64,000 nt of DNA from SAR202 cluster bacterium (GTDB taxonomy: Bacteria; Chloroflexota; Dehalococcoidia; Lucifugimonadales; UBA3495): NCBI GenBank assembly GCA_016872385.1, contig VGZV01000005.1, positions 6,578 to 70,577 on the forward strand, in the 5' to 3' direction. The notes under the pieces were generated by a model. That model saw nothing but the letters and a program-made list of their open reading frames with translations. It was not told the origin of the DNA and searched no databases. Made by a program: the position numbers and the translations under genes. Numbering within the stretch: position 1 is the first letter of the stretch; every line of letters begins with the position of its first letter. Of this stretch, positions 39,438 through 47,380 are shown in pieces.

Positions 39438-40874
39438 CTATTTGGGGAAATACAGGGCGTGGCCCGTGTGCTCGCCCGTTATCACACCAGTTTTAGGGTC
39501 ATAATTAAAGTCGAAGGGATAAAAGCCCTCCTCGGGACTGATTTGAGCGTTGACGATATCGCCACCGATGTCTATTACAACTGTTCCTCCCTTCACTTCC
39601 TTCACGCTGATGGGCGTACCAAAGTCATGACTCATCACGGTCTTTTCATCTGAACCGCTCAGGTAGCAGAAATGTCTTCCTTCGGCTTTAAAGTCCACCT
39701 TCTGGCCCTTTCTTTGGGGGGCTGCGTTAACCGGAGCGTGCCTGGTATATCCGGTGGCAGTAACCGTATATGTTGAGTCTTCGTAAGTATTTCCGGTGGA
39801 AGGGTCAATGTATGGTTCAGTGTTCTTGGTCCGGAAAACTGTCGGCTCATTCTTCCAGTCCATCACAGGTGTGGTGCTCGTGGAAGTTGACGAACCGCCG
39901 CCGCCATTGCGCTGCACATCCTGCGCCGCGCCGCCCTGCTGCACCACGTGAGTCAGCTCATGGGCCAGGGTCTCCCGCCCCGCGGCGGTACCTGGAGAGT
40001 ACTCCCCCTGGCGGAAATAGATGTCCTGGCCGGTGGTAAAGGCCAGGGCGCTCACCGACCGGTTCAGGGCGTCCGCCTCTGCGCCGGTATGGATGCGCAC
40101 CCCGCTGAAGTCCGCGCCAAAGGCCTCTTCCATGTGGGCTTGCACGTTGTCAGGCAAGGCCTGGCCCCGGCCCCGCGACTGCTCCACCGCTTGCTCCACT
40201 TCCAGGCCAGCGTCCCCACCTTCCAGACCCACCGCCCGCTGCAGGGGCTTCATTTGCAGTTCCTCGTCCTCCTCTACCCGCTGCAGGGGTTTCATCTGCA
40301 GTTCCTCGTCCTCCTCTACCCGCTGCAGGGGTTTCATCTGCAGTTCCTCGTCCTCCTCTACCCGCTGCAGGGGTTTCATCTGCAGTTCCTCGTCCTCCTC
40401 CACCCGCTGCAGGGGTTTCATCTGCAGTTCCTCGTCTTCTTCCACCCGCTGCAGGGGCTGCTGGCCCAGGGCAGGCATTTTCTGCACTACCTGTTTGGCC
40501 ACACGGTCCGCCTCCTGCTCGTAGGCGTCGCCCGCGGGCCCCACGGTCAGCTTGGTCTGGATGGTCTGGGCCTGCTTCCGGCCCTTAGCCGCCGCCAGTA
40601 CTTGCTGGACGTACCGGTTGCCGCCTTCTTGTTGCAGGCGCTGGACTATTGCGGCCCGCTGGCGGGCATTGCGAGGCTGGGCCATGGCCGGGCCTGCCAG
40701 CATGTCGGCATGGGCTTGAAAGCCGCGCTGTCCCAGCACATCTGTAAGCACTTCCTGTTCCGGCGAAGCCGGGCTATGCTGGCGTTCAGCGGCGGTCCTT
40801 GAACCGCGCTGTCTGCCCTGGGCGCTGGCCTTGCCGGTCGCGTTTTTTGGAGCATGTCCTTTGGAAGCGGGCAT
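39438..40874 (-). CDS. DUF4157 (eCIS core domain) cargo/effector with unknown C-terminal domain
   Basis: LQQEGGNRYV, KLTVGPAGDAYEQEADRVA, FGADFSGVRIHT, AFTTGQDIYF, LAHELTHVVQQ, then VQR and a ~150-aa AT-richer tip. Start MPASK after GGGAGG. Confidence 0.88.
   Translation of the reverse strand: MPASKGHAPKNATGKASAQGRQRGSRTAAERQHSPASPEQEVLTDVLGQRGFQAHADMLAGPAMAQPRNARQRAAIVQRLQQEGGNRYVQQVLAAAKGRKQAQTIQTKLTVGPAGDAYEQEADRVAKQVVQKMPALGQQPLQRVEEDEELQMKPLQRVEEDEELQMKPLQRVEEDEELQMKPLQRVEEDEELQMKPLQRVEEDEELQMKPLQRAVGLEGGDAGLEVEQAVEQSRGRGQALPDNVQAHMEEAFGADFSGVRIHTGAEADALNRSVSALAFTTGQDIYFRQGEYSPGTAAGRETLAHELTHVVQQGGAAQDVQRNGGGGSSTSTSTTPVMDWKNEPTVFRTKNTEPYIDPSTGNTYEDSTYTVTATGYTRHAPVNAAPQRKGQKVDFKAEGRHFCYLSGSDEKTVMSHDFGTPISVKEVKGGTVVIDIGGDIVNAQISPEEGFYPFDFNYDPKTGVITGEHTGHALYFPK
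40235..40457 (-). repeat. 42-bp in-frame tandem repeat (VEEDEELQMKPLQR) x5 plus partial
   Basis: Units start at 40235, 40277, 40319, 40361, 40403, 40445; no spacers. Confidence 0.95.
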
Positions 40875-40914
40875 AACAGGCCCTCCCATGTGAATGATTG
40901 ATAATGCGCAGGCG

Positions 40915-41649
40915 CTAACCGCCCAACCCCCGCCAGGCGGCCAGACCAATGGCTATCCCAATGCCGATGACCGGAAATACCCAGCCCGGCACTTTTGGCA
41001 GCACTTGCAACTGGGCGGTCACCACCACCGCAGGAGCCACCGCAGGGTCCGGGGTAACCTTTGCGCCAAAGCGGTGCGGTTTGCCCTTGAATACCCAGGG
41101 CCTCCGCCGCGGTTGGACGGACATAACCACTTCAGCCCGCCCGCCGGGCAGGACTCGGGGATACTCCGGCCGAAAAGTAAACACACAATCCCCTTCAGGT
41201 CTCTCTCCCGAAAGATTGAACGAGGTAGCGCTATTGCCGGTATTTTCGATTCCTATGTTATAGACCCCCACAAGGCCTGCGCCATTTACCGTTGCAATAT
41301 CTGCTTTAAAATCGCAAAAGCTTGCCACTTCCAGGGCGCCGGGCAGCGCGGTTTCCTGGGAGGGGTCCTGCTGCGATTGGACCCTGACGGTAAAAGGGTA
41401 AGGGCCTGCCAGCGCGCTGCTGGCTCTGGGCGGGCTGATGAAGAGTGTGCTGACCGCGCTATCGCCGGGAAACAAGGAGGCGCTGTGCAGGGACAGGGTC
41501 CGCCAGGTATCCCACAGTCCATCCACCTGGATAGACAAAATGTCCAGCATGGCGCCTGCATTGGTTATCTGGATAACAGCTTTGACCTGCTCGCCAGGAT
41601 TTACCTGGAGCCGCTCCGGGCTTAGCAGGGCAACTACGGGATCAGGCAT
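40915..41649 (-). CDS. Short paralog of the eCIS membrane protein: two Ig-like domains plus C-terminal TM anchor
   Basis: SASLFPGD, AGPYPFTVRV, PRRRPWV; TM WVFPVIGIGIAIGLAAW at the C-terminus. Confidence 0.78.
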   Translation of the reverse strand: MPDPVVALLSPERLQVNPGEQVKAVIQITNAGAMLDILSIQVDGLWDTWRTLSLHSASLFPGDSAVSTLFISPPRASSALAGPYPFTVRVQSQQDPSQETALPGALEVASFCDFKADIATVNGAGLVGVYNIGIENTGNSATSFNLSGERPEGDCVFTFRPEYPRVLPGGRAEVVMSVQPRRRPWVFKGKPHRFGAKVTPDPAVAPAVVVTAQLQVLPKVPGWVFPVIGIGIAIGLAAWRGLGG

Positions 41650-41658
41650 CTTGCCACC

Positions 41659-46252: not shown

Positions 46253-46255
46253 CTT

Positions 46256-46549
46256 TCAACCCCCAATCATGACGGTGGGAAGCCCCATGACAATGACGCC
46301 CCCATGGGCGGTATTGTCCCCCATGCGCGCCGCGGGCATGCCGCCAATGAGCACCGTGGCCGAGCCTTTAACAATGCTGTCCGGCGGACCAACGCAGGTG
46401 CAGGAACCACCCACCACAGCAGCAGGCGCCCCGCCAATTAACACCGTGGGCGCGCCCGGCGGCAGGATGGGGCCTCCCATGTGAGGAACTATTCCCCCCT
46501 CGACCATGGGACAGGTATGCATATCACCCACTCTAGCGGCTGGCGGCAT
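46256..46549 (-). CDS. PAAR spike-tip protein (Afp10-like)
   Basis: MPPAARVGDMHTCP, VLIGGAPAA, GSATVLIGGMPAARMGD. Confidence 0.95.
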   Translation of the reverse strand: MPPAARVGDMHTCPMVEGGIVPHMGGPILPPGAPTVLIGGAPAAVVGGSCTCVGPPDSIVKGSATVLIGGMPAARMGDNTAHGGVIVMGLPTVMIGG

Positions 46550-46656
46550 ATGGCACCTCCATGTTTACCCCCGCCCTGAGCGCAGCCAAAGGGATGGGGG
46601 TGAAGTTCAAGCAATTTATGCAAGGCTCAGTAATTTTCTGCCTGGTCATAAAGTCG

Positions 46657-47380
46657 CTAATCCTTGGCAGGGCCGACCACGCCGGTGGCGCTTACTTTAT
46701 TATTATCGCTGTCAAAATATACCTTCACCCACACGTCTCCGGTTACCGCATCTTTAACGTTGCGCAGGATGGCTTTGTCCGCGCCATGGGCAGCATAGAC
46801 TGTCATATACGTGCAGTTAATGCGAACAGCCCACACAGGCCCTTTAATTTTGTATGTGTCATTCTCGTAGTCAGCACCGAGGATTTTGTTTTTTTATCTC
46901 TTCGTCGGTGTGCAGCAGAACAGTGTTCTCTGCCCCCCTGCCGTTATTCGCCCGGCCCAGCGTGGCTTCAATGGCATATTCTTCATCATCAGCCAGATGG
47001 TCGCTCCGAAAGGTGCTGCTGCCATTGCTTGCAGTGTAGCCTTCCTCCGAGATAGTGTCCCTCTGGATCACCGCGGGCCCAGCGTGAATTACGCCAGCTC
47101 TTTTCCTCGAAATGTAGCCGATCAGCCCATGCACATATCGGTTGCCGTAGAGGCGCTGCAGGCTTTGCGCCACCTGGGCCCGCTGGCCGCCACGGCCGGG
47201 GCCTTTCAGTCCCTCCAGCAGAGCAGCGTGGCCCTCCAGGGTGTCCTGGCTAAGGTGGCTGCCCAACCGAACGGCGTCAGGTTGGCCCAATTCCTCTTGC
47301 CCGGCAACTTTTGACAACACTTTGGATCGGGCTCGCCCACGGATTGTTCCCTTGCCCGCAGTAAATTTGGTCTGGCGCAT
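46657..47380 (-). pseudogene. Candidate eCIS cargo/effector between vgrG and PAAR, frameshifted at an A7 run
   Basis: ATG 47380 with AGGAGA RBS; leader LQRLYGNRYV...VIQR. The frame stops at 46871, but deleting one A of the run at 46889-46895 continues as NKILGADYENDTYKIKGPVWAVRINC...VVGPAKD* to TAG 46657 (~240 aa). Confidence 0.75.

Follow-up and report, generated by a model that had tools for sequence, protein, structure and literature searches.

How a contractile injection system (CIS) chooses its cargo is unsettled, which limits both the prediction of injected proteins and the use of these machines as protein-delivery tools. A 64,000-nucleotide stretch from a SAR202 cluster bacterium (contig VGZV01000005.1, positions 6,578 to 70,577; hereafter the window) raises this question in a simple form, as its CIS cluster, judged complete and lying at 37.5-60.2 kb on the minus strand, encodes two proteins that share an N-terminal sequence, only the larger of which bears the domain DUF4157. 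A first-pass annotation, made from the letters alone, had suggested that a short shared helix, rather than DUF4157, might be the minimal packaging signal of this system, a label that should be taken as provisional. The shared sequence is homologous in the two proteins, N-terminal, independent of DUF4157, linked to CIS genomes and predicted with confidence to fold, and from this we infer, with moderate confidence, that it constitutes a modular cargo tag at the N-terminus in a large CIS clade that includes the cytoplasmic CIS of Streptomyces, its part in loading and the identity of its receptor both being putative.

Translation of the open reading frames (ORFs) of the minus strand placed both strings where the first-pass annotation had seen them, HAALLEGLKGPGRGGQRAQVAQSLQRLYGNRYV at 47132-47230 within the ORF 46871-47422 and HADMLAGPAMAQPRNARQRAAIVQRLQQEGGNRYV at 40608-40712 within the ORF 39438-40949. 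The likely start of the small protein is the ATG at 47380, with AGGAG 9 nt upstream, which yields 169 aa (P0003; 46871..47380), and that of the large protein is the ATG at 40874, with GGAGG upstream, which yields 478 aa (39438..40874). Compared directly, the two proteins matched with a BLASTP E-value of 3e-7 over about 108 aa. The boundary reported after the helix was also found, as 'VIQRD' in the small protein (IQR motif at 47060..47068) and 'TIQTKLTVG' in the large one. Likewise, DUF4157 was detected in the large protein only (PF13699, 113.5 bits against a cut-off of 22, E = 5e-33; aa 265-341 of the 503-aa frame, 39927..40157), and the small protein is therefore not a member of the DUF4157/eCIS_core family. 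Besides scoring above the gathering threshold, the large protein contains a HELTH (HExxH) motif, characteristic of this zinc-peptidase-like domain, and its gene lies in the CIS cluster; this DUF4157 domain is the sole copy in the genome.

The homology implied by the shared helix of the first-pass annotation is real, but its extent was understated, since the two proteins have in common neither a short motif nor a single helix but a module of about 60 aa, for which three helices are predicted. A hidden Markov model (HMM) built only from proteins of other organisms matched both window ORFs, with E-values of 3.3e-15 for the large protein (module at 40575..40751) and 1.7e-12 for the small one (47081..47275, aa 36-100 of the 169-aa form), and nothing else among the 39,264 ORFs of the genome, the next E-value being 3.1. 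A search with the DUF4157 protein retrieved 4,979 relatives, and about 100 of the best 120 displayed [LIVM]Q(R)xxGNxx[V] upstream of DUF4157; the subfamily matching both window proteins has the consensus (D)FSxxTFERHAALLGDxRMSxPMYAxQRAxIVxQLQRDYGNRYVQRLVxHI. When a module profile made from 28 segments was run against 1.84 billion representatives of 50% identity clusters, 1,194 clusters matched at E<=1e-3 and 219 at E<=1e-10. Among the best 150 of these 1,194 matches the module starts at a median residue of 45, on proteins of 79-1,447 aa, and in the window it starts at aa ~36 (small) and ~42 (large) from the likely N-termini. The core reads SLQRLYGNRYV in the small protein (47132-47164) and RLQQEGGNRYV in the large one (40608-40637), and its Gly-Asn pair does not vary among 84 aligned relatives, nor do the catalytic His and Glu of DUF4157 and residues near them. 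The module region is covered by no Pfam or NCBIfam model.

The proposal that the tag is independent of DUF4157 is borne out by sequence comparison, as DUF4157 is present in 61 and absent from 89 of the best 150 cluster matches. A Pfam check found PF13699 in none of the 67 DUF4157-less matches having at least 60 aa after the module; few of these have recognisable C-termini (ribonuclease, Peptidase_C70, reprolysin-like, DUF5636 and DUF4135). Most of the module-bearing proteins scanned have C-terminal domains without assignment, the others including again ribonuclease, Peptidase_C70 and reprolysin-like domains, and fusions of the module with RNase-like, HNH-like and HExxH domains were seen in relatives. 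The box 'KLTVGPxxDxYEQEAD', conserved with DUF4157, is kept in 11 of the 67, which may be truncated DUF4157 genes, while in 50 of the 89 the module is followed by 100 aa or more and both this TVGP box and DUF4157 are absent. Conversely, DUF4157 occurs without the module in tape-measure-position ORFs of several related loci, and together these distributions support the view that the two are separable. In loci L040, L041, L042, L049, L088, L082, L053 and L025 DUF4157 lies inside a long ORF of this kind that has no LQRxxGN core; such ORFs resemble the Tme-type effectors of S. davawensis. The 1058-aa ORF in the tape-measure position of the window contains neither DUF4157 nor the core.

Association of the module with CIS was assessed in 401 genomes sampled evenly from the phylum, of which 78 were CIS-positive, as judged by the cap domain Pvc16_N, and 323 were negative. 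The long module at E<=1e-5 was found in seven genomes, all of them CIS-positive (Fisher p = 8e-6; 4e-5 without the genome of the window), and a 27-position profile of the core (LQRxxGNxxV) matched 37 of the 78 CIS-positive against 3 of the 323 CIS-negative genomes (p = 6e-27), frequently within 5 kb of the cap gene. The outcome named beforehand as fatal to the idea, a motif common in genomes lacking CIS, was thus not observed, 37 of the 40 core-positive genomes being CIS-positive. Of the three CIS-negative genomes with the core, two have CIS-positive members of their genus in the sample and the third has such members in its family; the exceptions to the restriction to CIS genomes (G046, G278, G341 and G449) are all drafts, in 30 to ~590 contigs.

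A similar picture emerged from 80 loci of the same CIS lineage, drawn from Chloroflexota, Actinomycetota (many of them Streptomyces), Gemmatimonadota, Acidobacteriota, Verrucomicrobiota and Deinococcota. A strict core was found upstream in 33 of their 52 DUF4157 ORFs, where a background of 0.03 per 1000 aa predicts about 0.4, and the core also occurs close to the N-terminus of many neighbouring ORFs that have no DUF4157. Among these are Streptomyces ORFs of 1,250-1,350 aa, oriented divergently from the sheath gene, which further contain membrane hairpins and a region rich in Lys, Ala and Glu that would suit a coiled coil; in position and architecture they agree with the description of the loaded cargo Sle1 (PMC13277306), with which they are equated on those features alone. 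In related Streptomyces loci, LQRxAGNxAV is found on ORFs adjoining CIS genes. The expectation that a profile would uncover further cargos was met in part: motif and profile scans found none in the source genome, a 2.7-Mb assembly that is 97% complete, but the related genome G053 contains orphan cargo genes, in that the module occurs in four genes spread over two contigs at a distance from the CIS locus, of which one encodes DUF4157, a second a C-terminal HExxH domain, a third a nuclease-like protein and the fourth a protein without assignment. No CIS genes lie within 10 kb of P0004 and P0006, the closest DUF4157 relatives.

In an AlphaFold 2 (AF2) model computed with an alignment, aa 41-100 of the small protein reached a pLDDT of 83-94 and formed helices at 45-57, 64-78 and 80-98, with a break at the invariant Gly79, whereas the first 40 and the last 60 residues stayed below 50. 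The module of the large protein was predicted at 72-94 over the helices, with no helix break at Gly-Asn in the model, and its DUF4157 at about 96. A Foldseek comparison of the model with the PDB returned nothing (best E = 1.2), and no PDB chain with DUF4157 or the module was found; a resemblance of the profile to Pumilio repeats in the PDB (E ~0.5) was set aside as chance. The leaders of the tagged proteins are basic and hydrophilic, with isoelectric points of about 11 and grand averages of hydropathy of -0.89 and -1.49, and because of this hydrophilicity and the lack of any hydrophobic stretch a Sec or Tat signal peptide was rejected. A basic, hydrophilic leader is, in a machine-learning study, the biochemical signature of signals of extracellular CIS (eCIS) (PMC11297309). 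The [VI]QR boundary proved to be a general feature of the family, in which hydrophobic-Gln-Arg/Lys motifs reach 27 per 1000 aa before DUF4157, against 3.2 in shuffled sequences, an 8.5-fold enrichment in the leaders; such a motif also follows HExxHxxQ at a distance of no more than 25 aa in 58 of 110 proteins and in 2 of 110 controls.

In the mechanism that we favour, the tag would consist of about 40 basic, hydrophilic and probably flexible residues followed by a compact unit, some 60 aa long, for which three helices are predicted, the almost invariant LQRxxGNxxV core spanning the end of helix 2, a break at Gly-Asn and the start of helix 3. Recombination would have placed this tag before many unrelated C-terminal domains, with or without DUF4157 in between, and hydrophobic-Gln-Arg motifs would mark the joints between modules, possibly as processing or spacer sites. 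During particle assembly the tag would be recognised, most likely by the winged-helix domain (WHD) of the Cis15 AAA+ ATPase or by a component of the lumen or spike, and the tagged protein would thereby be directed into the tube. Read in this way, the machine of the window would have two cargos, one the 478-aa DUF4157 protein and the other the 169-aa protein. The ATPases of CIS in 80 genomes of the phylum fall into two types, in which the match to PF22977 starts either at about position 15 or only at about 60-100, and an ATPase with the full-profile WHD was present in 27 of 37 CIS-positive genomes with the core and in 2 of 41 without it (p = 1e-10). That the module is a sequence-defined address label of a CIS clade across phyla, read by the complete winged-helix N-domain of Cis15 and sufficient for loading a foreign protein, is a bolder proposition, which we hold to be possible but doubtful.

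Several observations weigh against a cargo tag read by the ATPase. The link between the core and the WHD type is confounded by shared descent, which can explain it, and is consequently only consistent with an ATPase reader. About half of the CIS-positive genomes in the phylum are without the core, which must therefore be clade-specific and not universal. The module is conserved and predicted to fold, whereas the published descriptions of loading sequences are of disordered, non-conserved stretches, and the cargos of the Algoriphagus system AlgoCIS are likened to those of the window by description, not by core sequence. The genome G046, 97% complete, holds three module-bearing ORFs and has no detectable sheath, cap or ATPase; these ORFs may be relics left after loss of the CIS, or the contig with the CIS may be absent from the bin. 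Of these ORFs (loci L019, at G046:C12 7788-11492, L017 and L018) one is fused to an RNase-like 'HTIDRHVGK' domain, a second is in frame upstream of a 1,235-aa SbcC/Rad50-like ATPase ORF and a third extends only to the core. Finally, another possible receptor is suggested by S. lividans, where a DUF4157 protein is bound by the N-terminal region of a cargo (PMC13277306).

This last result underlies an alternative in which the module docks to a DUF4157 adaptor or to the spike, and not to the ATPase. The module of the large protein would then be bound by DUF4157 in cis and that of the small protein in trans, and cargo would be tethered to the VgrG, hub or tube-initiator complex, much as in adaptor-mediated loading by type VI secretion systems (T6SS). 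Sle2, the DUF4157 protein of S. lividans, was tested against proteins of the spike complex and bound the N-terminal region of Sle1, itself without DUF4157 (PMC13277306), and in S. davawensis VgrG and the tube initiator co-purify with Tme, a DUF4157 protein (PMC11126660); the core near the N-terminus of the Sle1-like Streptomyces ORFs and the position of the small cargo gene between VgrG and PAAR would also fit. Nevertheless, the kinship of these ORFs with Sle1 is drawn from position and architecture alone, and in AlgoCIS a cargo without DUF4157 was still loaded after deletion of both native DUF4157 cargos (bioRxiv 10.64898/2026.05.27.728243), and we regard docking to an adaptor as unlikely.

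Alternatively, the module may be a removable pro-region that keeps a toxin or peptidase inactive or soluble in the producer, loading being specified elsewhere, and the DUF4157 zinc peptidase would cut at the hydrophobic-Gln-Arg joints, in cis in the large protein and in trans in the small one. The enrichment of these motifs before DUF4157 and after HExxHxxQ is in accordance with such cleavage, and the survey of Zhang et al. (2012) proposes the 'PVC-metallopeptidase' as an autoproteolytic releasing domain (PMC3482391). In many module-bearing proteins, however, DUF4157 is absent in cis, its metalloprotease motifs are reported to be unnecessary for the toxicity of Cgo1 (cited in PMC11297309), and a pro-region leaves the strict N-terminal position and the link with CIS genomes unexplained; this makes the explanation quite improbable, though it would also be compatible with a role in loading. 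Chance, or a compositional bias of two disordered leaders rich in Gln, Arg and Ala, might be proposed as the source of the similarity, as the leaders are indeed hydrophilic and rich in these residues and the profile has no PDB 'hits' beyond Pumilio repeats at E ~0.5. This is refuted by the independent profile (E = 3e-15 and 1.7e-12, next ORF 3.1), the 219 clusters at E<=1e-10 and the invariant Gly-Asn, and hardly deserves further weight.

The genomic setting of the two candidate cargos is that of a CIS with a BTAD regulator upstream. The cluster opens with the Cis15-type AAA+ ATPase (57868..60144, minus strand), whose N-terminal WHD is full-length (PF22977, E = 2e-54, profile positions 9-220, followed by the AAA domain). 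Downstream of it, a structural block assigned with Pfam and NCBIfam (41659..57746, minus strand) encloses the small cargo gene and runs from a Pvc16_N cap, the sheath, two gp19-type tube genes and the 1058-aa tape-measure-position ORF through a tube/LysM protein, VgrG, the 169-aa ORF, PAAR, gp25, Baseplate_J and P2_I to a 397-aa ORF (DUF4159; CIS13 weakly). A 244-aa ORF, the DUF4157 protein and a 632-aa ORF complete the order. The best matches of the sheath (55207-56772, minus strand) are the Streptomyces CIS sheath structures 8bky and 8bl4 (E = 5e-177 for 8bky), whereas the AlgoCIS sheath is only distantly related (E = 6e-50). Sheaths 51-69% identical to it were seen in Chloroflexota, Actinomycetota, Gemmatimonadota, Acidobacteriota, Verrucomicrobiota, Deinococcota and Dormiibacterota, and this distribution over phyla points to horizontal spread of the lineage. 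The ORFs of 632 aa (37525-39423) and 244 aa (40915-41649) that flank the DUF4157 gene gave only weak Ig-like matches (Cep192_D3, NPCBM_assoc); the tag is present in neither, and they might serve as parts of a fibre, in target binding or as additional accessory proteins. Public runs with the window sequence are lake-water metagenomes, and its nearest named relatives are Chloroflexota.

Within the large protein the leader and module are followed by the box IQTKLTVGPAGDAYEQEADRVA (40488..40562, minus strand), predicted as a strand and a helix at a pLDDT of 88-96, in which D, E, A and D are invariant in 84 aligned sequences; in the small protein this TVGP/YEQEAD box is at most a remnant (…HAGPAVIQR). 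An acidic spacer of PLQRVEEDEELQMK units, encoded by 5.3 copies of a 42-bp tandem repeat (40235..40457; Tandem Repeats Finder, 97% matches) and predicted to be disordered (pLDDT <50), then separates the leader from DUF4157, after which comes a C-terminal domain of 158 aa. Similar (E)EEELQMKPxQRQ arrays occur in related proteins, and as their copy number varies, the length of the spacer appears to evolve fast. The small protein consists of a basic leader, the three-helix module and an acidic C-terminus of 60 aa. The C-terminal domains of both proteins matched no Pfam or NCBIfam family, nor did the small protein as a whole, for which a word-based homologue search returned itself alone; homologue and Pfam searches likewise found no relatives of its acidic C-terminus.

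The small gene itself has the appearance of an insertion. In G053 PAAR directly follows VgrG, and in the window a 0.94-kb segment between them (46550-47490) comprises the small cargo gene and a 320-bp spacer with a G+C fraction of 0.41-0.51, against about 0.60. Since the two genes are contiguous in G053, gene and spacer were inserted into the spike-tip gene pair, and the segment suggests a recently acquired cargo cassette. The small gene ends just after a run of seven A residues at about 46889-46895 (region 46660-46900, minus strand), and with one A fewer its frame would continue for 76 aa (…KNKILGADYENDTYKIKGPVWAVRINCTY…GPAKD), ending 110 nt before PAAR. An assembly error at this run was rejected, because four independently assembled lake-water runs have the identical sequence. 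The region past the run, which contains an ATG-initiated ORF of 48 aa, could reflect a fixed frameshift, a separate small gene or non-coding DNA; the pieces on either side of the run matched no Pfam family and had no relatives among the sequences compared.

If the cargo-tag reading is correct, a conserved and foldable tag, independent of DUF4157 and nearly restricted to CIS genomes, would provide a simple genomic marker of cargo, including orphan cargo and cargo lacking DUF4157; should the bolder proposition of an address label also hold, cargo repertoires, even orphans far from the machine genes, could be read directly from genomes. The tag would also define elements to be mutated, namely the Gly-Asn turn and the LQR motif. 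For the source organism the cargo set would be small, two proteins in all, and one of these would have been inserted recently between the genes for spike and tip.

MIX and FIX are short conserved N-terminal markers of otherwise unrelated T6SS effectors, which allow orphan effectors to be found in genomes; they differ from the module in machine (T6SS), in sequence and in having no relation to DUF4157. Among CIS the closest parallel by description is AlgoCIS of Algoriphagus machipongonensis, in which the two cargos Cgo1 and Cgo2 also share an N-terminal region upstream of DUF4157 (PMC8894135); there, this region and the AAA+ ATPase are needed for loading and DUF4157 is dispensable (bioRxiv 10.64898/2026.05.27.728243). 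The window resembles it further in its Cis15-type ATPase and in the succession of N-terminal domain, optional DUF4157 and variable C-terminal domain. The AlgoCIS region, however, is described as intrinsically disordered, system-specific and not conserved, whereas the core of the window is conserved across phyla and predicted to be folded. In S. coelicolor, whose CIS belongs to the same lineage by its sheath (E = 5e-177 to 8bky), three effectors, Sco4256-4258, whose N termini are 'highly similar', are needed for particles to be filled (PMC10066040); compared by description, they differ from the proteins of the window in a transmembrane segment and ricin-type C-termini, and the accessible part of that report gives no motif.

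The PVC-type polymorphic toxins of Zhang et al. (2012) likewise combine a constant N-terminal part with highly variable toxin C-termini, are linked to phage-tail-like secretion and often have no adjacent immunity gene (PMC3482391). In the accessible portions of that survey the constant marker is the metallopeptidase (DUF4157), with no mention of an upstream module, whereas in the present family the module is more general and is found without the peptidase too. The signals of PVC and Afp cargos (Pdp1, Pnf, Afp18) are hydrophilic, positively charged leaders of 20-50 aa that lead payloads into the tube with the aid of the Pvc15 ATPase, with no detectable conserved sequence and no DUF4157 (Jiang et al. 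2022, cited in PMC11297309; PMC11495950); the first ~40 residues of the window proteins are alike, and a conserved helical module follows this basic stretch. We found no published description of a sequence-defined tag, and the motif is not described in the accessible parts of the AlgoCIS preprint (bioRxiv 10.64898/2026.05.27.728243) and of the S. coelicolor, polymorphic-toxin (PMC3482391) and machine-learning (PMC11297309) papers, the last of which reports that no specific conserved sequence was detected in eCIS signals. In its extreme N-terminal position, its occurrence in both cargos of one system and the presence of a Pvc15/Alg15-type ATPase, the tag of the window shares the traits of known loading sequences, and its first 35-40 residues (basic, pLDDT <50) also fit the 'disordered, non-conserved' trait, which the module does not. 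Accordingly, judged by sequence, it would belong with the N-terminal leaders of CIS cargo, to which it would add, in place of the 'no conserved sequence' of published work, a sequence that is conserved and predicted to fold.

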